A DNA stretch of 64,000 nucleotides from Candidatus Staskawiczbacteria bacterium (GCA_026395295.1 JAPLYZ010000012.1:1299-65298); one strand, 5' to 3'. Shown: positions 4,855 through 34,098, numbered from the stretch's first letter. Numbers and translations: made by a program. The notes: generated from the sequence alone by a model not told the origin.

Positions 4855-5574
4855 ATGGAATATGAAGAGATTATTAAGAAATTAGAATCGCTGAAAAACC
4901 CGAGAAATGTTGAGGGTATGGCGCATTTTGGCATACGGCCGAAAATAACAGCATTGGGGGCGCCAACTCCAGAATTAAGAAAACTGGCGAGGCAAATAAA
5001 AAAAGATCACGACATTGCGTTAAAATTATGGGATAAAAAAATTCACGAATCGAGAGTTTTGGCGAGCATGGTTGACGAACCGGACAAAGTAACCGAAAAA
5101 CAAATGGAGAAGTGGGCTGAAGATTTTGATTCGTGGGGCGTCTGCGACCAGGCGTGTATGAATCTTTTTTGCAGAACAAAATTTGCTCACAAGAAAGTTT
5201 TCGATTTTGCAAAAAGAGAAGAGGAATTTGTTAGAAGGACTGCTTTTGCTTTAATTGCCACTTTGGCAGTGCATGACAAAAAAGCGACCGACAAAGAATT
5301 TATAAAATTTTTCCCATTAATAAAGAAAGCATCAACCGATGAAAGGAATTTTGTAAAAAAAGCAGTAAACTGGGCTTTGCGCCAAATCGGAAAAAGAAAC
5401 AAGAAACTAAATAAAGAAGCCATAAAATTGGCGAAAGAAATTCACCCGGTCATCCGACCGGGTGCCCCGTTGGATAACGGGGCAAAATCAGCTAAATGGA
5501 TTGCCAGTGACGCTTTGCGAGAGCTTACAAGCGAAGCAGTGCAAAAAAGATTAAATGAAAAATATCTTCAATAA
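4855..5574 (+). CDS. DNA alkylation repair enzyme family protein (AlkD-like HEAT repeats)
   Basis: Resembles the PF08713-type pattern (ESRVLA...WGVCDQAC...FVRRTAFALIA...ERNFVKKAVNWALRQIGKRN). Carries an in-frame palindromic insert near the C-terminus. Confidence 0.7.
   Translation: MEYEEIIKKLESLKNPRNVEGMAHFGIRPKITALGAPTPELRKLARQIKKDHDIALKLWDKKIHESRVLASMVDEPDKVTEKQMEKWAEDFDSWGVCDQACMNLFCRTKFAHKKVFDFAKREEEFVRRTAFALIATLAVHDKKATDKEFIKFFPLIKKASTDERNFVKKAVNWALRQIGKRNKKLNKEAIKLAKEIHPVIRPGAPLDNGAKSAKWIASDALRELTSEAVQKRLNEKYLQ
5443..5482. repeat. two adjacent GC-rich hairpins inside the AlkD-like CDS (in frame)
   Basis: cacccggtc-atcc-gaccgggtg and ccccgtt-ggat-aacgggg, translated IHPVIRPGAPLDNGAKS. 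Confidence 0.75.
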
Positions 5575-6052
5575 AAAATTAATAGATAGGGCGTTTGAAC
5601 TCGGGATTTTAATAAAATCTTTTTTTGGGATATTTGAAATTTTGGCCGGGATCATTTTGGCAATTTCCGGCAGGTTGATGGTGAACAATTTTATTATTGC
5701 CCTAACTCAGCAGGAAATATCCGAGGACCCGAATGATTTTTTTGCCAACTATTTAATAAACGGCGTGAATAATTTTTCCGCCGGCAGTAATATTTTCGCC
5801 GTAGCTTATCTTGTTTTTCATGGATTGGTTAACATATCCCTGGCTATAGCTTTGTTGAAAAACAAAATTTGGGCTTATCCGTGGGCGCTTTTCGGATTTA
5901 GCGCCTTTTTAATTTATCAGACATACAGATATGTCCACAATCACTCTGTGTTGCTTTTGTTCTTAACCCTGGCAGATGCTCTTATTCTGTTTATTGTGTT
6001 GTTGGAGTATAAAAAAAAGAGGCGTAAGGCATTGTTCGGTTATAAAATATGA
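5555..6052 (+). CDS. DUF2127-like membrane protein
   Basis: Four predicted TM helices. Sequence pattern recalled as DUF2127; not verifiable here. Confidence 0.5.
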   Translation: MKNIFNKKLIDRAFELGILIKSFFGIFEILAGIILAISGRLMVNNFIIALTQQEISEDPNDFFANYLINGVNNFSAGSNIFAVAYLVFHGLVNISLAIALLKNKIWAYPWALFGFSAFLIYQTYRYVHNHSVLLLFLTLADALILFIVLLEYKKKRRKALFGYKI

Positions 6053-6525
6053 AGATGATATTAGAAATATTTTTAGTAATAATTGTTGTTATTTTATTGA
6101 TTTGTTCATTTTTTTATTATGCGGAGACCTTGATAGCACCGGCTCCCAATCAGAATCAATTGGGTTCTGTTTGTTTTAATGATAATTGTTTTCAGGTTGA
6201 GTTGGCAAAAACAAAAGCCGAGCGGGACAGGGGATTGATGTATAGAAAAGAGCTGGGCAAAGACAAAGGAATGCTTTTTGTTTTTGACAAAAGCGGAATT
6301 TATCCGTTTTGGATGAAAGACACCTTAATTCCCTTGGATATGATATGGATAGACAGCAATAGTAAGGTTGTTTTTATCGCTCATAATGTTCAGCCTTGCA
6401 AAAGTTTGATTTGTCCCTCTGTTTTTCCCGCTGCCAGAGCAAAGTATGTTTTAGAGGTAAACTCCGGCATTTGCCAAGACCTCGGACTGAAGTTGGGTGA
6501 TGTATTAAAAATTTCCCTTGACTAA
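6049..6525 (+). CDS. DUF192 domain protein
   Basis: N-terminal TM anchor plus RDRGLMYR...GMLFVF...FWMKDTLIPLDMIWID motif block typical of DUF192 (COG1430). Confidence 0.7.
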   Translation: MKMILEIFLVIIVVILLICSFFYYAETLIAPAPNQNQLGSVCFNDNCFQVELAKTKAERDRGLMYRKELGKDKGMLFVFDKSGIYPFWMKDTLIPLDMIWIDSNSKVVFIAHNVQPCKSLICPSVFPAARAKYVLEVNSGICQDLGLKLGDVLKISLD

Positions 6526-6570
6526 CTTTTTTGTGTTATAATTGAACAATATAATTAAAAAAGAAAAAAT

Positions 6571-8795: not shown

Positions 8796-8798
8796 TCA

Positions 8799-10001
8799 AT
8801 GAATTTTAAGATATTAAAAAAATCAAAAATCAGCAGGGCCAGGTTGGGTTTTTTGGAAACAGAGCACGGAGTTGTTGAAACCCCGTGTTTAGTTCCTGTG
8901 GCGACTCAGGCAGTTGTAAAAACATTAGACAGCAAAGAGGTTGAGGAAACTAAATCCCAAATTTTAATTTCCAACACTTTTTGGTTGCATTTGAGGCCAG
9001 GGGAGAAAGTCGTGGAGAAGGCAGGCAAGTTGCATAAGTTTATGAATTGGAAGAAACCGCTGATGACTGACTCGGGCGGTTACCAGGTTTTTTCTTTGGG
9101 CTTTGGCAGAGATTTTGGCTTAGGAAGTAAATTGGCGCTCGGCAACGAAATTTTTTCTCGCCTCGACCCGTCTGCTGACGGTGCCCACTCGTCTCGAAAA
9201 AACTTGTTGCCTCGCGCCATGGAGATAAAAGCGGGAGCGCAGCCGCAAAATTTAATAATTAATAGCGATGGCGTGGTCTTTCGTTCGCCCATAAATGGCG
9301 ATGAATTATTCTTGGGCCCCAAGGAATCAATAAAAATACAGGAAAAACTGGGAGCAGATATTATTTTTGCTTTTGATGAATGTACGCCCCCTATGGCTGA
9401 TTTTGATTATGTTAAAAAATCGTTAGAAAAAACTCATAATTGGGCAAAAATTTGTTTGAAAGCAAAAAAAACGAAGCAAGCGCTTTATGGAATTGTTCAA
9501 GGTTCAAGGTTTAAGGATTTAAGGGTTGAAAGCGCAAAATTTATCGGTGGATTAAATTTTGATGGTTTTGGGATTGGTGGAGAGTTTGGCAACAGTAAGA
9601 AAGAAATGAGCCAAATGTTGCAATGGGTTGCAGACGAACTGCCGGAAAAGAAGCCTCGACACCTCTTAGGGGTCGGTTATTTAGAAGACATGGAAGCAAT
9701 AATAAAATCCGGCGTTGACACTTTTGACTGCACCGTTCCAACTCACTATGCAAGGCGCGGGATTGCTTTTACCTCTGAGGGGAAACTGAATTTAAAACAG
9801 ACAAAATTTTTGAAAAAAATAGAGCCATTAGATAAAAATTGCGTTTGCAATGTGTGTTTAAATTACAAAAAAGATTATATATGCCATTTGCTGAAAGCGG
9901 GGGAGATAACCGGCATGAAACTTTTAACTTTTCATAATCTTTGGTATTTTAATACATTTGTTGAAGAGATAAGAAATAAAATAAAAAAAGGGGAGATATA
10001 A
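8799..10001 (+). CDS. tgt: queuine tRNA-ribosyltransferase (tRNA-guanine transglycosylase)
   Basis: TDSGGYQVFSL active-site block, FDECTPP, GIGGEFG, and a zinc site CVCNVC...H. Contains an in-frame repeat insertion at 9136-9216. Confidence 0.9.
   Translation: MNFKILKKSKISRARLGFLETEHGVVETPCLVPVATQAVVKTLDSKEVEETKSQILISNTFWLHLRPGEKVVEKAGKLHKFMNWKKPLMTDSGGYQVFSLGFGRDFGLGSKLALGNEIFSRLDPSADGAHSSRKNLLPRAMEIKAGAQPQNLIINSDGVVFRSPINGDELFLGPKESIKIQEKLGADIIFAFDECTPPMADFDYVKKSLEKTHNWAKICLKAKKTKQALYGIVQGSRFKDLRVESAKFIGGLNFDGFGIGGEFGNSKKEMSQMLQWVADELPEKKPRHLLGVGYLEDMEAIIKSGVDTFDCTVPTHYARRGIAFTSEGKLNLKQTKFLKKIEPLDKNCVCNVCLNYKKDYICHLLKAGEITGMKLLTFHNLWYFNTFVEEIRNKIKKGEI
9136..9216. repeat. CGCTCGG...CCTCGC palindromic element (family 2) inserted in frame in tgt
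   Basis: cgctcggcaacgaaattttttctcgc...aaaaaacttgttgcctcgcg is colinear with the intergenic element at 60289-60373. It is 81 nt (27 codons) and encodes ALGNEIFSRLDPSADGAHSSRKNLLPR. Confidence 0.75.
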
Positions 10002-10034
10002 ACCCCGTCATCCCGTCATTCGACGGGGCAAGAG

Positions 10035-10869: not shown

Positions 10870-11040
10870 ATGAAATACGCAACACAAAAAATTAAAACAG
10901 AAAGCGGGCAGTGCAGTATTTGCTCAGCCAAATTTGAAGTCTGGTTGGACAATTCAAAGCTGGACGATGAAAGGAAAGAAAAAATAGGAGAGAAATTATT
11001 GAGTTATTGTCCTGTTTGTTCAAGATCCAGCGAGAAATAA
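10870..11040 (+). CDS. small zinc-ribbon protein (56 aa, below the ORF-track cutoff)
   Basis: Hand-translated MKYATQKIKTESGQCSICSAKFEVWLDNSKLDDERKEKIGEKLLSYCPVCSRSSEK, with CxxC...CxxC. Fills the gap between the NrdD-like gene and sod. Confidence 0.45.
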   Translation: MKYATQKIKTESGQCSICSAKFEVWLDNSKLDDERKEKIGEKLLSYCPVCSRSSEK

Positions 11041-11053: not shown

Positions 11054-11659
11054 ATGGAAAAATACAAATTACCAAGTTTGCCATACGGGTATAAAGACTT
11101 AGAGCCCTATATGTCGGAAGAAGTTTTGACTCTGCACCACGACAAGCACCATGCAGCCTATGTTAATGCTGCTAACGCTTTGCTGGAAAAAATTCAGGAC
11201 GCCAGGCAAAATGACACAGGGTTAGATTACAAGTCGGTTTTGAAATCACTGTCTTTTAATGTGGCAGGTCATATCTTGCATGAAACATTTTGGCAGGTAA
11301 TGGCCCCGTCATCCGACGGGGCTGGCGCCCCCGAGAAAAAGGGAAAATTGTTGAAAGAAATAGAAAAAGAGTTTGGCAGTTTTGAGAGGTTTAAGACAGA
11401 ATTTTCCGAAACAGCAAAATCAGTTGAGGGTTCAGGCTGGGCGATTTTAGCGCATCACAAAGAGCACGGTGCTCTGGCAATAATGCAAGTGGAGAAACAC
11501 AATGTAAATTTTTATCCCGAGCAGAAAATTTTGTTATGTTTAGACGTTTGGGAACACGCATATTATTTAGATTACAAAAACGACCGGGCAAAATTCATAG
11601 AAAATTGGTGGAACATCGTCAACTGGAAAGAAGTGGAGAAGCGATTTATGGGCGAGTAA
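11054..11659 (+). CDS. Fe/Mn superoxide dismutase
   Basis: LPYGYKDLEPYMS, HHDKHH, and the DVWEHAYYLDYKN metal-ligand block. Carries an in-frame hairpin insert at 11303-11322. Confidence 0.9.
   Translation: MEKYKLPSLPYGYKDLEPYMSEEVLTLHHDKHHAAYVNAANALLEKIQDARQNDTGLDYKSVLKSLSFNVAGHILHETFWQVMAPSSDGAGAPEKKGKLLKEIEKEFGSFERFKTEFSETAKSVEGSGWAILAHHKEHGALAIMQVEKHNVNFYPEQKILLCLDVWEHAYYLDYKNDRAKFIENWWNIVNWKEVEKRFMGE
11303..11322. repeat. GC-rich hairpin (ccccgtc...gacgggg type) in frame in sod
   Basis: gccccgtc-atcc-gacggggc, encoding APSSDGAG. The same stem occurs at 10003-10028. Confidence 0.75.
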
Positions 11660-12427: not shown

Positions 12428-12894
12428 TAGGCAGAGAGTTTTATGTTATTTGCGATAATATAAGAAGCCTAGAGAATATAGGGTCAATTTTCAGGACATC
12501 GGACGCGCTTGGGGTTGATAAAATATATCTGTGCGGAATATCAGGGCGTCCACCACATCACAAAATTTCTAAAACCGCGCTAGGAGCAGAAGAAACAGTC
12601 CAATTTGAATATCACAGACAAATAGGGCGGTTGATTGATAAATTAAAAAAAGATAAAATTATAATTGTGGCATTGGAGCAGGGCAAAAGAGCGATTGATT
12701 ACAGAGAATTTAAACCAAAGTTTCCACTGGCCTTAATAATTGGCAACGAGGTTAAAGGAATTTCTAAAAAAATTCTACAAAAATGCGACAAAATAATTTT
12801 TTTGCCTATGTCTGGCGCAAAAGAATCATTAAACGTATCTGTGGCCTTCGGCATCGCAGGCTACCACATAATTAATATCGCTCGCCCCGCTTAG
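12424..12894 (+). CDS. SpoU/TrmH family RNA 2'-O-methyltransferase
   Basis: NIGSIFRTSDALG, LIIGNEVKGIS and SLNVSVAFGIA motif blocks. The last codons and stop lie in a palindrome. Confidence 0.85.
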   Translation: MIGREFYVICDNIRSLENIGSIFRTSDALGVDKIYLCGISGRPPHHKISKTALGAEETVQFEYHRQIGRLIDKLKKDKIIIVALEQGKRAIDYREFKPKFPLALIIGNEVKGISKKILQKCDKIIFLPMSGAKESLNVSVAFGIAGYHIINIARPA

Positions 12895-12911
12895 CGGGGC
12901 TCGCAAAAAAA

Positions 12912-20461: not shown

Positions 20462-20470
20462 GATAATATA

Positions 20471-20487: not shown

Positions 20488-20515
20488 GAGGTAGTAAATT
20501 AAATAAAAAAATATT

Positions 20516-20788: not shown

Positions 20789-20808
20789 AAAGCTAAATAA
20801 AGAAGTTT

Positions 20809-20876
20809 TGTCATTCCCAACTTGATTGGGAATCCAGAAAAATTTGACCCTGGATTCCCGCTTTCGCGGGAATGAC
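20809..20876. repeat. composite family-1 palindromic element
   Basis: tgtcattcccaacttgattgggaatccag-aaaaatttgacc-ctggattcccgctttcgcgggaatgac. Confidence 0.85.
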
Positions 20877-20886
20877 GATAATTATA

Positions 20887-22278: not shown

Positions 22279-22287
22279 GAAACCCTA

Positions 22288-22384
22288 AATCCAAAGTTCA
22301 AATATCAAATCAAATCCAAAGCTCAAATGCGTTTTGAAATTGGGATTTTGAACTTGATTTGAAATTAGAATTTTGAAATTTTAA
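22288..22384. repeat. AT-rich 'tcaaat / atttga' word hairpin
   Basis: The left arm is rich in tcaaat words (22288-22330) and the right arm in their complement atttga/tttgaa (22331-22380). The inverted repeat is imperfect. Confidence 0.65.
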
Positions 22385-22594: not shown

Positions 22595-24762
22595 AAAAGA
22601 TAGTTTTAAAAATTGGAGGTATGACCTGCGCTTCTTGCGCTTCGGTTATTGAATATGGATTGAGAAAAGAGAAAGGAATCACTTCTGCCAGCGTTAACAT
22701 TGCTTCGGAAAAAGCCTACCTTGATTTTGACGACCAAAAAATTACAGAAAAAGATATAGAAAAAACAATAAAAGATTTGGGATACAGGGTTGTTAAAGAC
22801 GAGATGGAAAATGGGGCGAGAGGTTTGAGGAATAGATTTTGGTTATCTTTGGTTTTAGGTTTGCCAATTATTTTTACAATGATTCCGGGGTTAATGGGTC
22901 TGCCGAAATATATTCAGGCGATTTTATCTGCTTTGGTTATTTTAGTTTGTTTTGATATTTGGAAATCCGGATTTAAAAAGTTGGTTAAATTGGCGCCGAA
23001 CATGGATTCATTGATCTTTATCGGAACGGCTGTGGCATTTTTTTATAGTTTATCGCAATTGTTTTTGGGACGGGCCAAAGGATACCCCGTTTATTTTGAA
23101 AGCGCAGTTTTCATTTTGATTTTTATCTCGTTGGGAAAGTATTTAGAGGCTGTGACGAAAGGCAAAACATCGGCGGCGATTAAAAGTTTGATGGGGCTTC
23201 AACCGAAAGTGGCAACGATAATAAAAAATGGCAGGGAATTGGAAGTTCTAATATCAGAAGTACAAGTTGGAGATGTTATTTTGGTAAAACCCGGTCAGAA
23301 AATTCCGGTTGACGGAATTGTTGTTGATGGGTATTCTGGCGTTGACGAAAAAGCAATTACAGGAGAATCAATTCCGGTTGAAAAGAAAAAAGGCGATGAG
23401 ATTATTGGAGCCACAATAAATAAAACAGGTGTTTTGAAATTCAAAGCGACAAGAATCGGAAAAGATACAATGCTTTCGCAAATTATCAAAATTGTGGAAG
23501 ATGCCATGGGAAGCAAAGCTCCAATTCAGCTTTTAGCCGATAAAGTTTCTTTTTATTTTGTGCCTGCTGTAATCGTTATAGCCTTAGCGTCGGGACTAGT
23601 TTGGTTTTTAGCAGTTCATCAGCTTGCAATGGCTCTTACTGTCTTTGTCGCTGTATTAATAATTGCTTGTCCATGCGCATTGGGATTGGCGACCCCAACA
23701 GCGGTGATGATGGGAGCCGGTTTAGCGGCAAAAAGCGGAATTTTAATAAAGTCTTCTAAAGCTTTAGAAGTGGCAAAAGATGTGAATATGGTTGTTTTTG
23801 ATAAAACAGGCACGCTGACCAAAGGCGAGCCGATTGTAACAGATGTAATGCCGATAAATTCAAATTTCAAATTTCAAATTTCAAATTTAATTCAGATTGC
23901 GGCGTCGGTGGAGAAAAATTCAGAGCATCCTTTGGCGCAGGCAATTGTGAATAAAGCGAAGGAAAAAAATCTTGCCCCGAGCGAAGTCGAAGGGTTTCAG
24001 GCAATTCCGGGCAAAGGGGTTATTGGAAAAATCCAAATTTCAAATTTCAAATTTCAAAACATTTTACTGGGGACAAGGAAACTTATGAAAGACAATAAAA
24101 TTTCTGTTGACGCTATAGAAGAAAAGATGGCGGCGCTTGAAAACCAGGGGAAAACAGCAATGGTTTTAGCTATCTCGGGAAAAGTTGTGGGAATTATCGC
24201 AGTGGCTGATGTTTTGAAGGAAAATTCCAAACAAGCAGTTGATATGTTGCACAAAATGGGTAAGTCTGTGGCGATTATTACAGGAGATAACAAAAGAGTG
24301 GGTGAGGCAATTGCTAAACAGCTTGGGGTAGACCGGGTGCTGGCGGAAGTCCTTCCACAAGGAAAATCTGATGAAATTAAAAAATTGCAGGCCGAGGGGA
24401 AAATTGTGGCAATGGTGGGTGATGGAATTAATGATGCGCCGGCCTTGGCTCAGGCAAATCTGGGAATTGCTTTGGGATCTGGTACAGATGTGGCAATGGA
24501 AACAGGGGAAATTGTTTTGATAAAAGATGATTTAAGAGATGTTGTAAAAGCAATCGATCTGAGCAGGTATACTTTGAATAAGATAAAACAAAATTTATTT
24601 TGGGCGTTTTTTTACAACATAATTGGAATACCAATCGCTGCAGGAGTTTTCTTTCCACTGACAGGTTGGCTGTTAAGTCCTTCTATTGCCGCCGGGGCTA
24701 TGGCGTTTTCTTCTGTTAGTGTTGTATTGAATTCTTTGAGTATGAAGTTTCACGGTGTTTGA
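22591..24762 (+). CDS. copA: copper-translocating P1B-type ATPase
   Basis: N-terminal GMTCASC HMA domain, TGES, CPC (ACPCALGLATP), DKTGTLT and GDGINDAP. Two in-frame caaattt repeats in the N-domain. Confidence 0.9.
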   Translation: MKKIVLKIGGMTCASCASVIEYGLRKEKGITSASVNIASEKAYLDFDDQKITEKDIEKTIKDLGYRVVKDEMENGARGLRNRFWLSLVLGLPIIFTMIPGLMGLPKYIQAILSALVILVCFDIWKSGFKKLVKLAPNMDSLIFIGTAVAFFYSLSQLFLGRAKGYPVYFESAVFILIFISLGKYLEAVTKGKTSAAIKSLMGLQPKVATIIKNGRELEVLISEVQVGDVILVKPGQKIPVDGIVVDGYSGVDEKAITGESIPVEKKKGDEIIGATINKTGVLKFKATRIGKDTMLSQIIKIVEDAMGSKAPIQLLADKVSFYFVPAVIVIALASGLVWFLAVHQLAMALTVFVAVLIIACPCALGLATPTAVMMGAGLAAKSGILIKSSKALEVAKDVNMVVFDKTGTLTKGEPIVTDVMPINSNFKFQISNLIQIAASVEKNSEHPLAQAIVNKAKEKNLAPSEVEGFQAIPGKGVIGKIQISNFKFQNILLGTRKLMKDNKISVDAIEEKMAALENQGKTAMVLAISGKVVGIIAVADVLKENSKQAVDMLHKMGKSVAIITGDNKRVGEAIAKQLGVDRVLAEVLPQGKSDEIKKLQAEGKIVAMVGDGINDAPALAQANLGIALGSGTDVAMETGEIVLIKDDLRDVVKAIDLSRYTLNKIKQNLFWAFFYNIIGIPIAAGVFFPLTGWLLSPSIAAGAMAFSSVSVVLNSLSMKFHGV
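23857..23890. repeat. heptamer tandem repeat (caaattt x4) inside copA, in frame
   Basis: aatt caaattt caaattt caaattt caaattt aa, encoding NSNFKFQISNL. Confidence 0.85.
24033..24060. repeat. heptamer tandem repeat (caaattt x3) inside copA, in frame
   Basis: c caaattt caaattt caaattt caaaac, encoding QISNFKFQN. Confidence 0.85.
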
Positions 24763-24801: not shown

Positions 24802-25212
24802 ATGGATAAAGCTGTAATAATTATAATAATCATAATAGTTTTGGTCGGCGTTGGTTTTTGGGCGTGGCAATCGGGAATTTTTAGCAAGGTAACTGTGCAA
24901 CCCACTCCCTTGCCTCCGGGAATAGTTTTGTTTTATGGTGATGGATGTCCTCATTGCAAAGATGTGGAAGATTTTATCAGTCAAAATAAAATTGAAGACA
25001 AAGTAAAAATAACACGTTTAGAAGTTTGGTATAATAAAAGCAACGTGCTATTGCTGGGACAGATTGCGCAAAAGTGCGGGGTAGCAGGAGACTCGGTCGG
25101 CGTTCCATTTTTATACGACCCGCCTAGCGTCGAGGCTGGCGGTAATGGGGCGTGTTATATTGGAGAAATTGACGTGCCAAATTTTTTAAAAAATGCAGCT
25201 GGTATCAAATAA
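24802..25212 (+). CDS. membrane-anchored thioredoxin-fold protein (CPHC)
   Basis: N-terminal TM helix, then LFYGDGCPHCKDVEDFI, a thioredoxin/glutaredoxin-like CxxC. Confidence 0.6.
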   Translation: MDKAVIIIIIIIVLVGVGFWAWQSGIFSKVTVQPTPLPPGIVLFYGDGCPHCKDVEDFISQNKIEDKVKITRLEVWYNKSNVLLLGQIAQKCGVAGDSVGVPFLYDPPSVEAGGNGACYIGEIDVPNFLKNAAGIK

Positions 25213-26271: not shown

Positions 26272-26303
26272 GTTAAAGTATAATAATAGATAGAGTTTAT
26301 TAG

Positions 26304-26380
26304 TAAAAACCAGTGGGTTCATATTTCACGCGATAGCGTAGTTTCTGAACCGGCTAAGAAAGTTTAATTTTCAAAAATAT
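26304..26380 (+). promoter_or_regulatory. conserved 77-nt leader, copy 1 (candidate cis-regulatory RNA)
   Basis: taaaaaccagtgggttcatatttcacgcgatagcgtagtttctgaaccggctaagaaagtttaattttcaaaaatat. Outer stem ggttca/tgaacc and inner stem acgc/gcgt. Near-identical to 28143-28220. Confidence 0.55.
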
Positions 26381-28042
26381 ATGAATCAAGAAACTAGAAT
26401 TTGTCAGAATTGCAAAAAGGACTTTGTAATTGAGCCCGAAGATTTTGATTTCTACGAAAAGATAAAGGTCCCTGCGCCTAAATCGTGTGCGTGGTGCAGA
26501 CAGCAGCATAGAATGCTTTTCCGTAATTTTAAAACGCTTTACAAGCGCAACTCCGATCTTTCAGGGCAATCTGTAATTTCTATGTATTCTCCCGAGTCTC
26601 CCTATAAAGTATGGACACACGATGAATGGTGGTCTGACAATTGGGATCCAAAGTCATATGCCAAAAAGTTCGATTTTCAAAAACCATTTTTTGAACAATT
26701 TCATGAGTTGCTTCTTGCTGTCCCGCGGTTTGCAATTATGAATACAAAAAGCGAGAACTGTGAATATTCTAACTTCACAAATGGATCAAAAAATTGCTAT
26801 CTTGTTTTTGGTTGCATTGATGACGAAGAGTGCGCTTATGGTCATATTGTTTGGGAGTCTGAAGACTCTTTTGATAATCTTTATCTACATAAGTCAGAAC
26901 TTTGCTATGAGTCAGTTGATTGCCTGGGTTCTTACCGTTTGTTTTATTGCCAGGAATGCGAAAGTTGTTCAGACAGCATTGGGCTTTTTGACTGTAAGAG
27001 CTGCCAAAATTGCATAGGTTGCGTTGGTTTACGACAAAAATTATATCACATTTTTAATGAGCCAGTTGGAAAGGAAGAGTATGAAAAGTTCGTTAAAGAG
27101 CACCCGTTTACCAACCCTGAAACTGTGTCTTTTATTTTGAAGAAGCAGCGCGAGTTAAGGCAAGCACTGCCGCAACGAAGTTTTTTTGGCTCGCACAATA
27201 ACAATGTTTCCGGCAACCACGTTTACAACGGTAAAAATATGCGCGATTGTTTTGATGTGAAAGGTGGGGAAAACTCCAGGTTTATTTTTACTTCCCGACA
27301 AACTGTCGATTCTTATGATGTCAGTTTTTCGCCGAATATTGAGCTTGTTTATAACTCACTGGCTACATTAAAATCCAATCGCGTTTTTTTCTCGCACCTG
27401 GTTAATGAGTCAAGCGATGTGTATTATTCCGATTGTTGCTTTACATCTCACAATCTTTTCGGTTGCGCCGGTTTGCGAAACGCAGAATATTGTATTTTTA
27501 ACCAGCAATACTCTAAAGAAGAATATGAAGAGCTGGTTCCTCAAATTATTGATCACATGAAAAAAACAAGAGAATATGGAGAATTTTTCCCAATTCGTCT
27601 TTCGCCCTTTGCATATAATGAATCGATTGCCCAAGAATACGCGCCGCTTTCAAAAGAAGAGGCAATAGCAGGGGGCTTTAAATGGGTTGATGATTTGCCA
27701 AGCACCGTGGGCAAGGAAACAATTGAACAGGAAAAACTTCCCAAAAACCCGGATGAGTTTGGCGAAGCGCTTCTTTCGCATATTTTAAAATGCGTAAAAT
27801 GCGGAAGAAACTATCGTCTTATACAAAAAGAAATAAACTTTTATAAACGTATGCGGTTTCCCTTGCCACAAGAATGTTTTAATTGCCGGCACGCAAGAAG
27901 AATGGCCATGCGAAACCCAAGGAATCTTTGGTCAGGAATTTGCGCCAACTGCGGAAAACAAATAGAAACTTCGTATCCGCCGGAAAGTCAAAAAGAGTTT
28001 AAAATTTACTGCGAGGCCTGCTATAACAGCGAGGTCGCATAG
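26381..28042 (+). CDS. cysteine-rich repeat protein, paralog A (zinc-ribbon ends, 12-residue repeat core)
   Basis: 553 aa with no signal peptide. N- and C-terminal CxxC...FY.K...P.P..C..CR...R...RN modules and two repeat blocks, each ending GC.GLR...Y.IFN..(Y)..EEYE. Confidence 0.75.
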   Translation: MNQETRICQNCKKDFVIEPEDFDFYEKIKVPAPKSCAWCRQQHRMLFRNFKTLYKRNSDLSGQSVISMYSPESPYKVWTHDEWWSDNWDPKSYAKKFDFQKPFFEQFHELLLAVPRFAIMNTKSENCEYSNFTNGSKNCYLVFGCIDDEECAYGHIVWESEDSFDNLYLHKSELCYESVDCLGSYRLFYCQECESCSDSIGLFDCKSCQNCIGCVGLRQKLYHIFNEPVGKEEYEKFVKEHPFTNPETVSFILKKQRELRQALPQRSFFGSHNNNVSGNHVYNGKNMRDCFDVKGGENSRFIFTSRQTVDSYDVSFSPNIELVYNSLATLKSNRVFFSHLVNESSDVYYSDCCFTSHNLFGCAGLRNAEYCIFNQQYSKEEYEELVPQIIDHMKKTREYGEFFPIRLSPFAYNESIAQEYAPLSKEEAIAGGFKWVDDLPSTVGKETIEQEKLPKNPDEFGEALLSHILKCVKCGRNYRLIQKEINFYKRMRFPLPQECFNCRHARRMAMRNPRNLWSGICANCGKQIETSYPPESQKEFKIYCEACYNSEVA

Positions 28043-28142
28043 CGTAGCGATATAATCAAGAAGTTGCATAAAAGGCCGAAGTCCCGCCGAAGCTTTAGCG
28101 AAGGCGGACGAAAGTTGCTACAACGCAGAAGTCGCATAAAGA

Positions 28143-28220
28143 TAAAAACCAGTAGGTTCATATTTTACGCGATAGCGTAGTTTCTGAACCCACTAAGAAA
28201 GTTTAATTTTCAAAAATATC
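28143..28220 (+). promoter_or_regulatory. conserved 78-nt leader, copy 2
   Basis: taaaaaccagtaggttcatattttacgcgatagcgtagtttctgaacccactaagaaagtttaattttcaaaaatatc. About 6 differences from copy 1. Confidence 0.55.
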
Positions 28221-29939
28221 ATGAACGCCGAAACTAAAGTTTGCCAAAATTGCAAAAAGGACTTTGTAATAGAGCCCGAGGATTTTGATTTCTACGAAAA
28301 GATAAAGGTTCCCGCGCCAACTTTTTGTTTTCAATGCAGAACAGTACGACGCCTGTCTTTCAGAAACGAACTTTCCCTTTATAAAAGAAAATGTTCTGCT
28401 CCCGGACACAACGAAGAGATGATTTCTGCATTTTCTCCAGAAAAAAATATGGTTGTCTATGATAACAAATATTGGTGGAGCGACCAGTGGGACCCCATGG
28501 ATTTTGGCAGGGATTATGATTTTTCAAAAACATTTTTTGAGCAATGGCGAGATTTCCGCAACAAATTCCCTTTTCAAAGCGTTTCTAACTCGCATAACGT
28601 GAACAGCGACTATTGTAATGTAGCCGATTACAGCAAAGATTGCTACTTGGTATCTGGTGGTTTTAAGAATGAGAAAGTCCTTTATTCAAACAGAGCAGAG
28701 GGTGACAAAGATTCCGCAGACTTATATGTGGCCCATGACAGCGAGCTTTGCTACGATAATGTCCTTTGTTCCGATTCTTATCACGTGTTTTACAGCCTCC
28801 GTTGCACCAATTGTACAGATTCTTATTTTCTTTATGATTGCCGAAACTGCTCTAATTGTTTTGGTTGCAGCAATCTAAGAAGTAAAAATTGTTATATCTT
28901 TAATCAGCCTTATACAAAAGAAGAATACTCCCAAAAAATAAAAGAGTTTAATCTTTCCAGCTTCTCGTCAGTCCAAAATTTGAAAAAGGAATTTGAAAAA
29001 ATTTACAAAAAGTCTGTTCACAGATATGCCAATATCTTAAAATCCGACAGGTCAACGGGAGATAATTTAGAAAATACTAAAAATTGCAAGTCGTGTTTTG
29101 ATATAAAAGAGGCTGAAGAAGGAAAATATAACCACTGGGGCGGTTTGCAAACAAAAGATTTCTACGATAGTGGACCGGGCACTGGTGTTGGGGCTGAATT
29201 ACTGTACGAAACTTTTGATACCGGAGTTCAGTGCTCAAGAAATTTTTTCACCAGCGTTGTTTACAGCTCGCGAGACGTCTATTATTCTTTCAATTGCTAT
29301 GATTGCTCTGATCTTTTTGGTTGTATTGGTCTGCGCAGTAAGCAATCTTGTATTTTTAACAAACAATATTCTAAAGAAGAATACAAAGCTCTGAAAGATA
29401 AGATAATTGAACATATGAACAGCATGCCATATGTGGATAAAAAAGGTCTGGTATATAAATTCGGAGAATTTTTTCCCGCAGAACTCTCGCCTTTTGCTTA
29501 CAACGAAACCGTGGCGCAGGATTATTTCCCGCTAAACAGAGACCAGGCTATTAAAGAAGGATATAATTGGCGTGATGCTGAAAATAAGAATTACAAAATT
29601 ACCATAAATGCAGAAGATCTGCCAGACGACATAAAGGATGTTGACGACTCCATCTCAAACGAGATAATTGGATGCGCGCACCATGGTAAATGCAATGATG
29701 TCTGTTCAGCGGCTTTCAGAATAATTTCACAGGAATTTCAGTTTTACAAGAAGTTGGGCATCCCTTTGCCCAGATATTGTTTTGGTTGCCGGCATGCTGC
29801 GCGATTACGTTTGCGCAATCCTATGAAATTATGGGACCGCCAGTGCGCAAAATGCGGGAGGGAAATTAAAACATCGTATGCTCCTGACCGCCCGGAAATT
29901 GTTTACTGCGAAAGCTGCTATAATCAAGAAGTGGCGTAA
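28221..29939 (+). CDS. cysteine-rich repeat protein, paralog B
   Basis: 572 aa with the same architecture as 26381-28042. The first ~33 codons are nearly identical at the DNA level; the rest has diverged. Confidence 0.75.
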   Translation: MNAETKVCQNCKKDFVIEPEDFDFYEKIKVPAPTFCFQCRTVRRLSFRNELSLYKRKCSAPGHNEEMISAFSPEKNMVVYDNKYWWSDQWDPMDFGRDYDFSKTFFEQWRDFRNKFPFQSVSNSHNVNSDYCNVADYSKDCYLVSGGFKNEKVLYSNRAEGDKDSADLYVAHDSELCYDNVLCSDSYHVFYSLRCTNCTDSYFLYDCRNCSNCFGCSNLRSKNCYIFNQPYTKEEYSQKIKEFNLSSFSSVQNLKKEFEKIYKKSVHRYANILKSDRSTGDNLENTKNCKSCFDIKEAEEGKYNHWGGLQTKDFYDSGPGTGVGAELLYETFDTGVQCSRNFFTSVVYSSRDVYYSFNCYDCSDLFGCIGLRSKQSCIFNKQYSKEEYKALKDKIIEHMNSMPYVDKKGLVYKFGEFFPAELSPFAYNETVAQDYFPLNRDQAIKEGYNWRDAENKNYKITINAEDLPDDIKDVDDSISNEIIGCAHHGKCNDVCSAAFRIISQEFQFYKKLGIPLPRYCFGCRHAARLRLRNPMKLWDRQCAKCGREIKTSYAPDRPEIVYCESCYNQEVA

Positions 29940-29940
29940 A

Positions 29941-29981
29941 CCCCGTTAGAAATAGCTCGCACAGTGTGATTTCTAACGGGG
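29941..29981 (+). terminator. 13-bp GC-rich hairpin after paralog B (terminator or palindromic element)
   Basis: ccccgttagaaat...atttctaacgggg with a 15-nt loop and a weak T-tract. Confidence 0.5.
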
Positions 29982-30039
29982 TAAATTTTGGTTGTAAAGA
30001 AAAAATAGGGTATAATGGAATATAAGCTAAATTATTTTA

Positions 30040-30165
30040 ATTATTCTAATTGCTCTAATTATTCTAAATAATATCTAATTTCCAATTTTTAAATTATTTT
30101 AAGCATTAGGCATTTTGGAATTAGCATTTGATTAGGTTAATTAGACTAATTAGGTTAATTAGAAA
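30040..30165. repeat. AT-rich 'ctaatt / aattag' word hairpin upstream of the SDR gene
   Basis: The left arm has ctaatt-type words (30044-30086) and the right arm aattag-type words (30103-30162). Includes the 18-mer taattaggttaattagaa (30147-30164). Confidence 0.65.
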
Positions 30166-30173
30166 TTTCAATT

Positions 30174-30965
30174 ATGTTTGGATTAAATAAAACAACGTCG
30201 AAGTTTTGCGACTTAAAAGGAAAAGTCGCCATTGTAACCGGAGCCGGAAAGGGAATGGGCAGGGCTGACTCGCTAAAGTTAGCCGGCGCCGGAGCTAAAG
30301 TTGTTTTAGCCGATATTTCTTTGCAAGATTGCCAATCGGCTGTTGAAGAAATTAAAAAAGGCAGGGGAGAGGCAATTGCAATAAAGTGCGACGTCAGTAA
30401 AAAATCGGAAATTGATAATGTTGTCGCCGAAACTCTTAAAAAATTCGGCAAGATAGACATTTTGGTAAACAACGCCGGCATTTATCCGTTTGAACCGTTT
30501 TTAACAATGCCCGAGCAAAATTTTGAAAAAGTGATTGATATAAATTTAAAAGGATATTTTTTAATGGCTCAGGCTTGCGCCAAGGAAATGGTAAAACAGA
30601 AGTCGGGCGCCATTGTAAACATTTCTTCAATTGCAATGGGGCAGGTGGGCGTTGGGTTTGCAGGGTTGACTCATTACTGCGCTTCAAAAGGCGGAATTAC
30701 AGCAATGTCGCAGGCAATGGCTTTGGAGCTGGCGCCATTTGGAATTAGGGTAAACTGCATTGCTCCGGGCTCAATTGATACTCCGGGCACACACACTTCA
30801 ACAATGGAACCAAAAGTGCAAGAAGCAATGAATGCCGCCATTCCCATGAAAAGAAGTGGCAAGTCAGAGGAAATTGCCAACGCGGTTTTGTTTTTGGCAT
30901 CTGATGAGTCTTCTTATATGACCGGTTCAACCATGGTTGTTGACGGGGGATGGGTGGCGGGATAG
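30174..30965 (+). CDS. SDR family oxidoreductase (FabG / glucose dehydrogenase-like)
   Basis: TGAGKGMG Rossmann motif, NNAG, the catalytic S...YxxxK (YCASK) and a PG motif. Confidence 0.85.
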   Translation: MFGLNKTTSKFCDLKGKVAIVTGAGKGMGRADSLKLAGAGAKVVLADISLQDCQSAVEEIKKGRGEAIAIKCDVSKKSEIDNVVAETLKKFGKIDILVNNAGIYPFEPFLTMPEQNFEKVIDINLKGYFLMAQACAKEMVKQKSGAIVNISSIAMGQVGVGFAGLTHYCASKGGITAMSQAMALELAPFGIRVNCIAPGSIDTPGTHTSTMEPKVQEAMNAAIPMKRSGKSEEIANAVLFLASDESSYMTGSTMVVDGGWVAG

Positions 30966-30986
30966 AATTAAGTAAAAATAATTTAA

Positions 30987-31101
30987 TCGCTCGGAAAATA
31001 ATTTTCTGCTAACGCTCGTGTCCTTCGGGCTTCGCCCTCAGGAAACTCGCTTCGACAGGCGCTTTGCGTCCTGTAATACGCTGAAAATCATTTTCCTCGC
31101 T
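30987..31101. repeat. family-2 palindromic element (~115 nt, CGCTCGG...CCTCGCT termini)
   Basis: tcgctcggaaaataattttctgctaacgctcgtgtcc...gtaatacgctgaaaatcattttcctcgct. Close copy at 62905-63012. Confidence 0.85.
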
Positions 31102-31108
31102 ACAAAAT

Positions 31109-31270
31109 ATGACAGAAGCTTATTGCGTAAAATGTAAAGCAAAAGGTGAGATGAAAGACCCAAAAGAAGTTGAAATGAACGGCAAGGGCGGAACAAAACG
31201 CTCGGCCATGACCGGCACCTGCGTAAAGTGCGGAACAAAAATGTTCAAGATAATGGGCATGAAAAAATAG
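31109..31270 (+). CDS. small zinc-ribbon protein (53 aa; DUF5679-like)
   Basis: Hand-translated MTEAYCVKCKAKGEMKDPKEVEMNGKGGTKRSAMTGTCVKCGTKMFKIMGMKK. Followed by a strong terminator. Confidence 0.6.
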   Translation: MTEAYCVKCKAKGEMKDPKEVEMNGKGGTKRSAMTGTCVKCGTKMFKIMGMKK

Positions 31271-31277
31271 AGACATC

Positions 31278-31311
31278 AAGAACACCGGCGATGGTCGGTG
31301 TTCTTTTTTTG
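31278..31311 (+). terminator. intrinsic terminator
   Basis: aagaacaccg-gcgatggt-cggtgttctt followed by a T-tract. Confidence 0.75.
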
Positions 31312-31352
31312 TTTGTTTGTTGTATAATAGAACAACATGTATAAAAAGTATA

Positions 31353-31390
31353 ATCTTACAAAACCTCAAACGTTTTAGGTTTTGTAAGAT
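31353..31390. promoter_or_regulatory. 38-nt palindrome (candidate operator) overlapping a TATAAT upstream of 31426
   Basis: atcttacaaaacct-caaacgtttt-aggttttgtaagat, a 14-bp perfect stem. TATAAT at 31349-31354. Confidence 0.5.
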
Positions 31391-31425
31391 GGGTGATATA
31401 ATAGAATAAAAAATAGAATAAAAGC

Positions 31426-31953
31426 ATGAAAATATCTGTTACTGATAAATTTCTCTGGGATGTTTATAGTTTTCTTGAGAGTGCAAATAGCGCGGCAAAT
31501 TTTATGTTTAAGGCGCCGACGATGAGGAATTGGCTGCCTGGAGAAAAAAATCCGGTTTTTGAAAAATATAGGAAGGAGAAAGGTAGGAGAGAATTTAGTA
31601 ACCTTATTTATTATTTGAAAAGGAAAGGATATATAAAAGCAAAAAATTTAGAGGGTAAACAGGGTATGTTGTTAACAAAGCAAGGGATAGACAAAGCATT
31701 CACCACCAGCTTTAAACTGGGGAAGGGGAAAAAGAGAAAAGACGGTAAGTGGGCAATGCTGATTTTTGATATGCCAAAAAGACGAAGAAAAGAGAGGGAC
31801 TTATTAAGAAGCGTTCTATGCAATTTGGGATATAAGATGTTTCAACAAAGCGTTTGGATGACTCCATATGATGTTTCTGACAAAACAGAAAAGTTACTTC
31901 AAAGATATTCATTGGATAAATATGTTAGGATATTTATTATAGAAGAATTATAA
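31426..31953 (+). CDS. putative wHTH regulator (PaaX-like, with a Cas2-like ferredoxin-fold segment)
   Basis: LIYYLKRKGYIKAKNLEGKQGMLLTKQG (wHTH-like), then WAMLIFDMPKRRRKERDLLRSVLCNLGYKMFQQSVWMTP. Assignment from memory, low certainty. Confidence 0.4.
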   Translation: MKISVTDKFLWDVYSFLESANSAANFMFKAPTMRNWLPGEKNPVFEKYRKEKGRREFSNLIYYLKRKGYIKAKNLEGKQGMLLTKQGIDKAFTTSFKLGKGKKRKDGKWAMLIFDMPKRRRKERDLLRSVLCNLGYKMFQQSVWMTPYDVSDKTEKLLQRYSLDKYVRIFIIEEL

Positions 31954-31955
31954 CT

Positions 31956-31993
31956 ATCTTACAAAACCTCAAACGTTTGGTAATTTGTAAGAT
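31956..31993. promoter_or_regulatory. second, degenerate copy of the 38-nt palindrome
   Basis: atcttacaaaacct-caaacgtttg-gtaatttgtaagat, 3 nt after the stop of 31426-31953. Confidence 0.5.
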
Positions 31994-32084
31994 ATGTATA
32001 TAGGTATAAAAGGAGAAAATGGAGGGAAGGGAGAAAGCGGAGGAGATTTGGTTTAGGATATAGAGACGTTTAACTAAAGTACAA

Positions 32085-32987
32085 ATGCAGAAGAAATATA
32101 TTGTCGGGTTTGCATTATTTTTGTTTTTCCTTAACATTCTCTGCTGGCAGGAAGTTTTTGTTTTATCAGGGCCGCGATATTTGCAGGTTGATTTTTTTGA
32201 TGTTGGGCAAGGAGATTCGGCTTTTATTCGAACTCCCGAGGGTCATAACATTCTAATTGATGGCGGTCCGGATCAATCGGTTTTGGCAAGGTTGAACACA
32301 GTCTTGCCTTTTTGGGACAAATCTTTGGACTTGGTAATTCTAACTCATCCGGAAAAAGACCACATGCAAGGACTGTTGGATGTTTTGCAAAGATATCAGG
32401 TGGATTATTTTTTGTGGACCGGCGTTATAAAAAACGACGCGGAAAATAAAAAATTGGCTGACATTTTAAAAAGGCTTGAAAGTTCAACGCAGAATTCTAT
32501 GCTGGCCGCGTTATCTCCGGAAAAAATAAAAGTAATAACAGCAGTTGCAGGACAAGAGATAAAAGCCGGCAATGTGTTGATTGATACATTGTATCCCTTG
32601 GAAGATGTGTCGGGTAAAGAGCTAAAAAATACCTCCAACGACACTTGTGTTGTCTCAAGGTTAATTTACGGCAAAATTTCTTTTCTTTTTACCGGAGACA
32701 TAAGTTCTACGGCGGAAAAAGATCTTGTAAGCGATGGGTTTAACTTGCAGTCAGATGTTTTAAAAGTGGCGCACCACGGTTCGAAGTATTCAACTTCTGA
32801 TATTTTTTTAGCGGCAGTTGAGCCCAAAATGGCTGTTATTTCAGTTGGCGCCAAGAACACATATGGGCATCCTACCCCGGAAACTTTGCAAAGACTGGAA
32901 AAATTTGGTATAAAGATATTCAGAACAGATAAAGACGGAGATGTAAATTTTATCTCCGACGGAAAAAATATAAAAGTAATAAAATAA
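32085..32987 (+). CDS. ComEC/Rec2-related metallo-beta-lactamase domain protein
   Basis: N-terminal TM, DVGQGDS, LTHPEKDHMQG (HxHxDH-like) and VAHHGS. This is the typical ComEC C-terminal MBL module. Confidence 0.75.
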   Translation: MQKKYIVGFALFLFFLNILCWQEVFVLSGPRYLQVDFFDVGQGDSAFIRTPEGHNILIDGGPDQSVLARLNTVLPFWDKSLDLVILTHPEKDHMQGLLDVLQRYQVDYFLWTGVIKNDAENKKLADILKRLESSTQNSMLAALSPEKIKVITAVAGQEIKAGNVLIDTLYPLEDVSGKELKNTSNDTCVVSRLIYGKISFLFTGDISSTAEKDLVSDGFNLQSDVLKVAHHGSKYSTSDIFLAAVEPKMAVISVGAKNTYGHPTPETLQRLEKFGIKIFRTDKDGDVNFISDGKNIKVIK

Positions 32988-32991
32988 ATTT

Positions 32992-34098
32992 ATGAAAAAC
33001 CTTGATTTTCCAGTTTTCAAAACTAAGTCAGATGAGTATAAGAAGTTCGATTTAACTGACGCCAAAAGCAGGCAGGATTATTTTGAATACAAAGCCGGTC
33101 CGGAAATAAAAAAAATGCGCGAGTATTTAAAAAAAAATACTTTTATAGCCTACTTTATGGGCAAAAAGTCTTCGGGTAAGGGCACGTACGCTAAAATGTT
33201 TGCCGAAGTAATAGATAAAGACAGAATTGCTCATTTTTCTATTGGAGACATGATAAGGTCTTTTGACGAAGTTATACAAGATCCGGCAAGAAGAGGAGAA
33301 ATGGTAAAATTTTTGGAAAAAAATTACCGAGGCAGAATGCCCCTAGAAGACATAATGAAGTCATGGGACAACAGGTCAACAAAAACATTGTTGCCAACAG
33401 AATTGATTCTGGCTTTGGCAAAAAGGGAAATTTCAAAGCTTGGCAAAAAGGCAATTTTTTTGGATGGATTCCCAAGAGACATAGACCAGGTTTCTTATTC
33501 TTTATTTTTCCGCGACCTAATTGATTACCGAGATGACCCCGACGTTTTTATTCTAATAGACGTGCCAACAAATGTAATTGACGAAAGGGTGAAATTTAGG
33601 GTTATTTGTCCGCTTTGCCAAACATCAAGAAACGTGAAACTTTTGGCGACAAAAAAAGTGGAGTATGACCCTTCGGCGGGCTCAGGGCAAGCAAAATTCC
33701 ATTTGATTTGCGACAACGCCAACTGCCCCGCCTCCGCCAAGGCTTCGGCGGGCAAGCCCGGAGCAAGGATGACCACAAAAGAGGGCGACGAGCAGGGGAT
33801 TGAGCCAATTAGGGCAAGGTTGGAAAAAGACGAGATGCTTATTAAAGAGGCTTATAATTTAAAAGGAATCCCAAAAGTGCTTTTAAGAAACTCAATTCCG
33901 TCTAAACAGACAAAAGATTTTACAGATGATTACGAAATTACTCCCGAATATGTTTACGAGGTAAAAGACGGCAAAGTTATTACAACTGAAAGACCGTGGG
34001 AGGTTAAAGACGACGAAGGAACTTTATCTAACAGCTTGATGCCGCCTCCGGTTGTGGTTTCTCTTATAAAACAGTTAGTTAAAGTTTTGGGCATTTAG
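32992..34098 (+). CDS. adenylate/nucleoside-monophosphate kinase family protein with zinc LID and N- and C-terminal extensions
   Basis: P-loop GKKSSGKGT, GFPRD, and a LID CPLC...CDNANC. Two GC-rich repeats in frame in the LID. Confidence 0.6.
   Translation: MKNLDFPVFKTKSDEYKKFDLTDAKSRQDYFEYKAGPEIKKMREYLKKNTFIAYFMGKKSSGKGTYAKMFAEVIDKDRIAHFSIGDMIRSFDEVIQDPARRGEMVKFLEKNYRGRMPLEDIMKSWDNRSTKTLLPTELILALAKREISKLGKKAIFLDGFPRDIDQVSYSLFFRDLIDYRDDPDVFILIDVPTNVIDERVKFRVICPLCQTSRNVKLLATKKVEYDPSAGSGQAKFHLICDNANCPASAKASAGKPGARMTTKEGDEQGIEPIRARLEKDEMLIKEAYNLKGIPKVLLRNSIPSKQTKDFTDDYEITPEYVYEVKDGKVITTERPWEVKDDEGTLSNSLMPPPVVVSLIKQLVKVLGI
33667..33761. repeat. two GC-rich repeat units (cttcggcgggc...aagc type) in frame in the kinase LID
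   Basis: gacccttcggcgggctcagggcaagc (DPSAGSGQA) and ccccgcctccgccaaggcttcggcgggcaagcccgg (PASAKASAGKPG). Confidence 0.7.

Follow-up and report, generated by a model that had tools for sequence, protein, structure and literature searches.

Several families of short GC-rich hairpin repeats are probably dispersed through the tiny genome of a groundwater bacterium, Candidatus Staskawiczbacteria (Candidate Phyla Radiation, or Patescibacteria), where copies lie in frame in intact genes, have been filtered by selection, and are translated together with their hosts. The repeats resemble repetitive extragenic palindromic (REP) sequences and miniature transposable elements with inverted repeats (MITEs). 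They were studied in a stretch of 64,000 nucleotides (GCA_026395295.1 JAPLYZ010000012.1:1299-65298), hereafter the window, which has a GC content of approximately 38% and has almost all of its genes on the plus strand. Its MnmA and AlkD are 100% identical to proteins that NCBI assigns to a Candidatus Staskawiczbacteria metagenome-assembled genome. Comparison with orthologs reveals in-frame GC-rich hairpin inserts free of stop codons, at least 11 in total, in seven intact genes across approximately 30 kb. These genes are alkD, tgt, iscS, mnmA (four sites), the HMA-permease gene, the open reading frame (ORF) 24802-25212, and the gene for an ADK-like kinase (two sites). The inserts fall where solved homologs have short loops. 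Family copies are found both within genes and between them, the intergenic copies typically just after stop codons.

How can such inserts be distinguished from ancestral segments or from the debris of decaying genes? The hosts were compared with solved structures, with four syntenic contigs of the Candidate Phyla Radiation (CPR; L001, L002, L123, and L124), and with up to 119 homologs; the orthologs on the four contigs mostly share 55-90% protein identity with the window. Indels had to be unique to one genome, a strict filter by which inserts are under-counted at hot spots. A preliminary description of this DNA had proposed ortholog alignment as a check, and the alignments show the inserts to be missing from orthologs. 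Pfam confirmed all eight host identities named there: DNA_alkylation, TGT, Fe/Mn-SOD, SpoU methylase, class-V aminotransferase (IscS/NifS), MnmA, HMA-DsbD_2-cupredoxin permease, and ADK-like kinase. Pfam domain coverage of the host proteins is full and the invariant columns are all retained; therefore, the hosts are not pseudogenes. A usable PDB homolog was found neither for alkD nor for the CPR GIY-YIG protein discussed below.

The window is rich in hairpins of this kind. There are 14 loci with a perfect GC-rich hairpin whose stem is 7 bp or longer, as against 1.7 +/- 1.4 in block shuffles. Among the sliding-window folds listed, which span the window apart from approximately 26,300-33,700, the most stable are in alkD (-30.3 kcal/mol), the HMA-permease gene (-28.2 kcal/mol), and sod (-23.5 kcal/mol), and all three lie beyond the 0.1 percentile. 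A scan for GC spikes was also tried as an insert detector and set aside as uninformative, its 189 segments being mostly ordinary Gly/Ala/Pro-rich motifs.

The preliminary description spoke of at least nine decorated housekeeping genes and itself listed eight. Six of these are borne out as insertions, while sod and the SpoU methyltransferase gene are not; four inserts had been overlooked, three further ones in mnmA and one in ORF 24802-25212. Its core reading, that palindromic repeats which also occur between genes lie in frame in intact essential genes, is upheld by the ortholog alignments and by the presence of the same DNA at unrelated loci.

Family 1 (F1) is defined by the motif GTCATTCCC-N(4-20)-GGGAATCC, which occurs seven times in the window and not once in 100 shuffles (0 expected). 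There is one singleton; the other copies are four doublets, in one of which the left unit is divergent. Three doublets are intergenic. The first (3586-3651) directly follows the stop codon of an ftsE-like gene and extends over the TTG predicted as the start codon of the ftsX ORF, the second (20810-20877) occupies the spacer between csoR and the HMA-permease gene, and the third, an F1-like doublet (51791-51855), follows the EF-G stop codon and has the divergent left unit ATCCCCGCGGAGGCGGGGATCCAG. The two coding copies, both on the plus strand, are a single unit in iscS (15323-15350), which encodes LDSRFHGND in frame, and a 72-nt doublet at site C of mnmA (17914-17985), which encodes VIPSLTGNPGKVENTLDSRFRGND within a hot-spot loop between the motifs GHY and KDQSY. 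This layout of three intergenic and two coding copies agrees with the first account. The iscS insert is confirmed as an insertion: it adds 15-24 nt relative to three relatives, and IscS proteins of the PDB have a gap of eight residues exactly opposite KLDSRFHG.

Within the doublets, the heads (TGTCATT) point outward and the tails (AATCCAG) inward, with a spacer of 12-21 nt. Individual units read ATTCCCGC-GAAA-GCGGGAAT-CCAG and ATTCCCAA-CTTGA-TTGGGAAT-CCAG; that is, an 8-9-bp stem starting with AT encloses a loop of 4-5 nt. The 5' tag is CGTC in one unit and TGTC, one base off CGTC, in the other six. The 28-nt NTS/SRM consensus CGTCATTCCCGCGMAVGCGGGAATCYRG has four matches in the window (28/28, 27/28, 26/28, and 25/28; 0 expected by chance), the perfect one being the right unit of the doublet at 20810-20877. 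In a genome scan, the F1 hairpin proved to be pan-bacterial, with at least 120 loci in many phyla, CPR included; a viral/prophage scan matched it too, and the loci listed there are again a lower bound.

Judged by its sequence, F1 falls within the pan-bacterial family CGTC-1/dRS3/NTS (SRM); the cognate protein of that family would be the small GIY-YIG single-stranded DNA (ssDNA) nuclease Ssn. CGTC-1 has been equated with Neisseria dRS3 and with RPE-6 of R. conorii (PMC3733652), one of the Rickettsia palindromic elements (RPEs), and the equivalence of F1 with RPE-6 comes by way of the same paper. The parallel with RPEs drawn in the preliminary description is thus closer than was claimed. NTS repeats associate with SsnA, which cleaves ssDNA site-specifically and modulates transformation in Neisseria (PMC11893778). 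Intragenic REPs, as single units or dimers encoding 20-30 amino acids, have been reported in several bacteria, and palindromic repeats lying in frame are known among both the RPEs of Rickettsia and the GTAG/CGTC REPs of several phyla (PMC3733652).

Family 2 (F2) is a longer palindrome of approximately 80-95 nt whose ends, CGCTCGGCAAC...TTGCCTCGC, are conserved and whose center, a GC-rich hairpin, is variable. One copy lies in frame in tgt (9136-9216, plus strand; GCGCTCGGCAAC...GTTGCCTCGCGC), where the insertion that had been proposed is confirmed by a net gain of 60 nt over the orthologs in L001 and L123. Another is intergenic (60287-60372), between the gene for S14 and the one after it. L002 carries one intergenic copy and one in mnmA, and the mnmA loops of L001 and L123 hold F2-like variants. 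At the 3' end of the SpoU gene in the window there is a hairpin with F2-like ends (TCGCTCG...CTCGC; 12877-12906, plus strand), and in L002 a full copy of F2 is located at the 3' end of the same gene. The segment 12884-12900 had been taken for an internal insertion; however, the hairpin carries the stop codon TAG in its loop and supplies only the last few codons, giving a C-terminus of approximately IARPA.

F2 has several features of a MITE: it is small, has imperfect terminal inverted repeats of approximately 20 nt and no ORF of its own, and exists in multiple dispersed copies. A target-site duplication was not found for F2; the ends CGCTCG...CTCGC belong to the element in every copy, and the empty site of L124 contains no such sequence. 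No parent autonomous insertion sequence (IS) was seen for it. As the metagenome search pattern for F2 was too loose, only copies in low-GC contigs were counted: there are 33, most of them outside long ORFs or at ORF ends, and approximately six look internal. Most high-GC matches were rejected, since they represent a conserved protein motif, TLGNRQAT...AAQLASL, and not the element. In many high-GC soil contigs among L125-L244, the pattern matches a conserved palindromic 87-nt coding segment near residue 332 of an ORF of approximately 700 amino acids. F2 is possibly a family that has not been described before.

Family 3 (F3) is defined by the loop TCATCCGA and has three loci in the window: alkD, sod, and the spacer after tgt. 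The alkD insert (5443-5484, plus strand) consists of two abutting inverted F3 hairpins with the loops TCATCCGA and TTGGATAA and encodes PVIRPGAPLDNGA in frame. It stands as an insertion, adding nine amino acids that are shared by only two of 119 other aligned homologs. The insert DNA is 93% identical between the window and L365, the contig of an alkD relative, while the whole gene is only 71% identical; hence either the hairpin is under constraint or it was acquired after the genes split. An F3-like hairpin (10003-10028) directly follows the tgt stop codon. The third locus is the hairpin GCCCCGTCATCCGACGGGGC in a variable loop of sod (11303-11322, plus strand), whose loop TCATCCGA is common to the alkD copy and one intergenic copy. 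The claim that this too is an internal insertion is not borne out: each residue of APSSDGAG has a counterpart in homologs, which nearby are only 2-4 amino acids shorter. Because there is no clear gain in length, the insertion of the sod hairpin is left undemonstrated.

The remaining inserts are short. Family 4 (F4) is represented in the LID of the ADK-like kinase by DPSAGSGQA (33667-33693, plus strand; +12 nt), and a second site in the same LID contains a hairpin encoding PASAKASAGK (33727-33756, plus strand; +30 nt), both being confirmed as insertions. The conserved ORF 24802-25212 has an in-frame GC-rich hairpin of 21 extra nt encoding PPSVEAG (25120-25140, plus strand), which is missing from four relatives. 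In the linker of the HMA-permease, two GC-rich hairpins (21091-21145, plus strand) add 27 nt relative to L124, which supports the insertion; the insert is also present in L001, and so the event is older. The peptides of F4 and of the other short inserts turn up at different sites in relatives. For example, relatives have F4 peptides at site B of mnmA, and in L001 an F4-like copy (15530-15555) overlaps a lineage-specific insert of six amino acids in the P-type ATPase ortholog of that contig. A patch in the ATPase of the window (23974-23994) was considered as a further insert and rejected: its DNA is GC-rich, GCCCCGAGCGAAGTCGAAGGG (APSEVEG), where relatives have the AT-rich SLSEVKN, and since the length is unchanged there is no insertion.

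Short in-frame families also occur outside the window. L001 has one of its own, ending in ...GGGTACCCC and giving GPADGYP, GPKGYP, and GSEGYP in tgt, mnmA, and the kinase (159-173, 10967-10978, and, in the kinase, approximately 20393-21155). It seems that each genome draws on families of its own, placed in loops that the genomes have in common. In the window, a GC-rich hairpin that folds strongly (-22 kcal/mol; 61870-61909, region 61843-61923) was also noted in the Arg/Gly-rich N-terminal extension of the coding sequence 61765-62412, which we take from its sequence to be ribosomal protein S5.

The clearest record of repeated insertion is in mnmA. Besides the F1 doublet at site C, the gene carries, all on the plus strand, SCAEPGRS at site A (17551-17574; +24 nt), DQSASRIVTDKKD at site B (17611-17649; +27 nt relative to L123 and L124), and YAEFCGRRK with a small hairpin at site D (18448-18474; +27 nt). 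Site B has the same insert in L002 and a different one in L001. At site C, residues 154-181 face only seven residues in the B. subtilis and S. pneumoniae MnmA proteins of the PDB alignment, an excess of approximately 21 amino acids over PDB MnmA, and the site in L124 is empty (TGHYASIKQGKLLKG). Both the proposed insertion between GHY and KDQSY and the statement that E. coli MnmA has only a short loop there are borne out.

Among 118 scorable mnmA homologs, the GHY...KDQSY spacer has its minimal length of 15 residues in 53 and is extended by 5-46 residues in the other 65. Peptide signatures of F2, read in three frames (SLGN..F...LLPR, RSATNFF, and ARQQ/ARQS), account for 29 of these 65; the remaining inserts are CGTC-type doublets, members of an AT-rich IPNPKSQIP family, or unclassified. 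The different frames and different families at this loop indicate independent events. The peptide encoded by the tgt insert of the window is found in the mnmA of two relatives, and P0081 has a tgt-type insert in mnmA. In several mnmA inserts, a duplicated piece of the left end (TSLG/TSLS) comes first and the start of a second element next, as in ACTTCGCTCGGTAATATCGCTCGGCAAC of L002, and L002 has a duplicated TCGCTCGG that may be a footprint of insertion. These duplicated left ends suggest serial insertion into, or beside, earlier copies. With regard to the AT-rich inserts, quasi-palindromic repeats of the CAAAT/TTTCAAAT type are intergenic in the window at 22287-22380 and 52230-52304, and a translated equivalent (REIPNPKSQIP...) fills the mnmA loop in P0020, P0034, P0039, and P0074.

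Where would these peptides sit in the folded enzyme? An AlphaFold model (AF2) of the MnmA of the window has a mean predicted local distance difference test (pLDDT) score of 79. Inserts B and C are modelled as low-confidence coil: blocks 51-70 average 43-44, with pLDDT below 50 at site B, and blocks 151-180 score 51-68 on average. The model is better at insert A (block mean 78) and at insert D (77), the latter being partly helical. Together with the gaps relative to solved homologs, the model fits the idea that the inserts occupy permissive loops. Peptides predicted for the decorated proteins are ISVIPSLTGNPGK, VENTLDSR, and LDSRFHGNDNAHIVISSIEHPCIMESAK.

We favor the following mechanism. The elements would insert more or less anywhere, and in a gene-dense genome many would land in genes. 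Purifying selection would then keep those insertions that are a net multiple of three, stop-free, and placed in permissive loops, and the insertions so kept would be translated as extra loop peptides. Recurrent independent hits by different families and in different frames would turn some loops into hot spots, GHY...KDQSY of mnmA being the clearest. As a weaker part of the proposal, F1 doublets might be mobilized in trans via single-stranded hairpin intermediates. Of the two halves of the earlier suggestion, that this genome "tolerates, or exploits" a high load of elements, tolerance in permissive loops is the more economical view, and exploitation lacks support. The load is not peculiar to this one genome either: the same sites are occupied by different inserts in relatives, which makes it a property of the lineage.

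Could the same loops have become GC-rich and self-complementary in place, by compositional drift, slippage, or quasi-palindrome correction, with no element ever inserted? Lineage-specific variable loops of this kind would account for sod and the ATPase patch at 23974-23994, which have the same length as their homologs, for the HMA-permease linker that is common to L001, and for those short inserts that are single-copy in the window. They would not account for the recurrence of identical 25-28-mers and 80-95-nt palindromes at loci that are unrelated, coding as well as intergenic, for the tgt insert peptide that turns up in the mnmA loop of other genomes, or for an alkD insert that is so much better conserved than its gene, and we consider such an origin quite improbable. 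The conservation of the alkD insert, in which one stem change keeps G-T/G-U pairing, also raises a different idea: that the inserts are kept as useful nucleic-acid elements in operons, as Ssn cleavage sites limiting recombination, as mRNA stabilizers or attenuators, or as protein-binding sites, with the peptide a by-product. The REP-like position of intergenic copies just after stop codons agrees with this, as does the modulation of Neisseria transformation by NTS repeats (PMC11893778). However, the inserts are missing from most homologs, different families occupy the same loop, and recent acquisition explains the conservation equally well, so that a retained nucleic-acid function is an unlikely explanation.

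The genomes of CPR bacteria are known for intervening sequences in their rRNA genes, and hairpins are strong RNA structures; it is conceivable, then, that the inserts are removed around translation, by RNA excision or by intein-like processing, leaving mature enzymes without them. This is very hard to reconcile with the fact that all 11 inserts are in frame and free of stops, for which the chance from length alone would be approximately (1/3)^11 if frame were irrelevant. In addition, none of the hosts is split among approximately 25 syntenic orthologs, no intein or intron motifs were found in the window, and Rfam at the gathering threshold reports only tRNAs in it. Errors of assembly or binning deserve a thought because the source is a metagenome-assembled genome, yet the same inserts and families appear in independent assemblies from different samples and centers, with frames intact, and an artefact is scarcely credible.

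Dispersed repeats inserted in frame, selected, and translated thus remain the preferred explanation. Several observations nevertheless count against it. No case of transposition was observed, nor any target-site duplication or polymorphism in presence/absence among near-identical strains, and that the inserts are translated we infer solely from the conservation of the frame. The CAEPGRS, PASAKASAGK, and PPSVEAG families have one copy each in the window, and so their status as repeats rests on the recurrence of the peptides in relatives. GC-rich patches that leave the length unchanged, in sod and at 23974-23994 of the ATPase, may have arisen in place. As for mobilization, neither a GIY-YIG gene nor any other candidate mobilizer was found in the 64-kb window, and the published role of SsnA is that of a nuclease modulating transformation rather than that of a transposase (PMC11893778).

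Which protein might mobilize the F1 doublets? A candidate comes from relatives. L365 has a gene for an 86-aa single-domain GIY-YIG protein (944-1204) between atpD and atpC, flanked by the inverted hairpins TGTCATTGCGAGC...GTGGCAATCCAG (TGTCATT...AATCCAG); gene and hairpins are also present in L366. Genes of the same type with the same inverted flanks are found in L369 and L371 (1501-1791). The family of the L365 protein is large, with 7,491 matches at E <= 1e-10. Two GIY-YIG paralogs are named by NCBI as Candidatus Staskawiczbacteria RIFOXYD2_FULL_37, and both loci have these flanks. One lies between MacB/FtsX genes on a contig of assembly GCA_001820435.1, and the other between atpD and atpC, in metagenome contigs of the European Nucleotide Archive (ENA) only. 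In a tblastn search with the L365 protein, homologs of 40-54% identity lie at most 115 nt from F1 hairpins in seven of eight other loci, which had been chosen solely for containing F1, and in three of the seven the gene is flanked on both sides by F1 hairpins. From its sequence context, the GIY-YIG hairpin gene looks like a multi-copy cassette, and the hairpin-gene-hairpin order of the relatives is the NTS-ssnA-NTS arrangement of PMC11893778.

The doublets of the window share the end arrangement of these cassettes and enclose only a 12-21-nt spacer; therefore, they look like gene-less miniatures. It is a tentative idea, and one more apt to prove wrong than right, that F1 doublets are internally deleted hairpin-ssn-hairpin miniatures, that Ssn is the missing mobilizer of CGTC REPs (dRS3, RPE-4/6), and that loops of the mnmA type record repeated hairpin-mediated insertions.

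Other regions of the window were also noted. Between the ADK-like kinase and M50 peptidase genes, which are adjacent in L002 and L124, there is a block of approximately 13 kb (34225-47600) with a GC content of up to 0.49 that codes for repeat proteins of very large size, with VGIGTAxP repeats and 'IYNRALS' motifs. A tRNA-Pro gene (47660-47732, minus strand) borders the block, which is probably an acquired island. Two GC-rich ORFs of 91 and 383 amino acids with no Pfam match lie between mnmA and csoR (18776-20245); in syntenic relatives, mnmA and csoR are adjacent or nearly so and these ORFs are lacking. An ORF at 36554-37393 contains a 23S rRNA intervening-sequence protein domain (PF05635) amid AT-rich inverted repeats (36841-37478); no rRNA gene was found in the window.

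These results add the Candidate Phyla Radiation to Rickettsia and the few other bacteria in which essential proteins carry in-frame palindromic "decoration". For annotation, signatures such as RFRGND, SLGN..F...LLPR, and RSATNFF in metagenome proteins can be read as translated repeats, and the inserts bear on the alignment-based phylogeny of CPR marker genes. The presence of gene-less doublets and Ssn cassettes in one lineage provides a concrete, testable model for the mobilization of CGTC-type REPs. If the Ssn reading is true, the elements would be a major generator of protein-length variation in CPR housekeeping enzymes.

How much of this is new? In-frame palindromic repeats are already known as a phenomenon, and so is the link between F1 and Ssn (PMC11893778). 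The CPR setting, the density, the coexistence of several families, and the recurrent hot spots may be new. No description of such elements in CPR/Patescibacteria was found in the open-access literature, and a full-text search with the peptide signatures (RFRGND and others) found nothing relevant.

Among known systems, the CGTC-1 REPs (PMC3733652) match F1 in the 8-bp stem starting with AT, the GAAA or 5-nt loop, the CCA(G) tail, and the inverted dimers, as well as in their location just downstream of ORFs with occasional in-frame intragenic single units or dimers. F1 differs in its tag, which is mostly TGTC, in its very short dimer spacers (12-21 nt), and in its CPR/Patescibacteria host, a phylum outside the five of that paper. 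With the NTS/SRM and SsnA system (PMC11893778), the window shares its NTS matches, and relatives have GIY-YIG genes between inverted hairpins in the manner of NTS-ssnA-NTS; however, the window itself has no ssn, and the cassettes of the relatives are flanked by the stem variant TGTCATTGCGAGC...GTGGCAATCCAG and not by the exact F1 stem. The REPIN/RAYT system also has inverted REP-hairpin doublets as non-autonomous units, and there, too, the doublet mirrors the repeats on either side of a gene present in single copy. By contrast, F1 has the tag (C/T)GTC and no GTAG, and the flanked gene in relatives encodes a GIY-YIG protein rather than a Y1 (IS200/IS605-type) transposase. The identification of F1 with REPIN/RAYT was rejected on these two points.

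In-frame MITEs and intragenic REPs of Opitutus terrae and Thauera (PMC3733652) are comparable to F2, which measures 80-95 nt and lies mostly between genes, a minority of its copies being in frame. F2 differs in having no identified target-site duplication or parent IS, and in its center, a variable GC-rich hairpin. RPE-1 and the other RPEs (Ogata et al. 2000/2002, as cited in PMC3733652) likewise place palindromic repeats in frame in intact essential genes of a reduced genome, and here too the inserts are missing from orthologs, are sited in loops, and leave the ORFs open (11 inserts in seven genes). RPE-1, at more than 100 bp, is unrelated in sequence to F2-F8, and the expression of decorated proteins is documented in Rickettsia, whereas here they are predicted from the genes. 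What sets the CPR case apart from Rickettsia is that several short families coexist, and that the same loop has been hit repeatedly across relatives.

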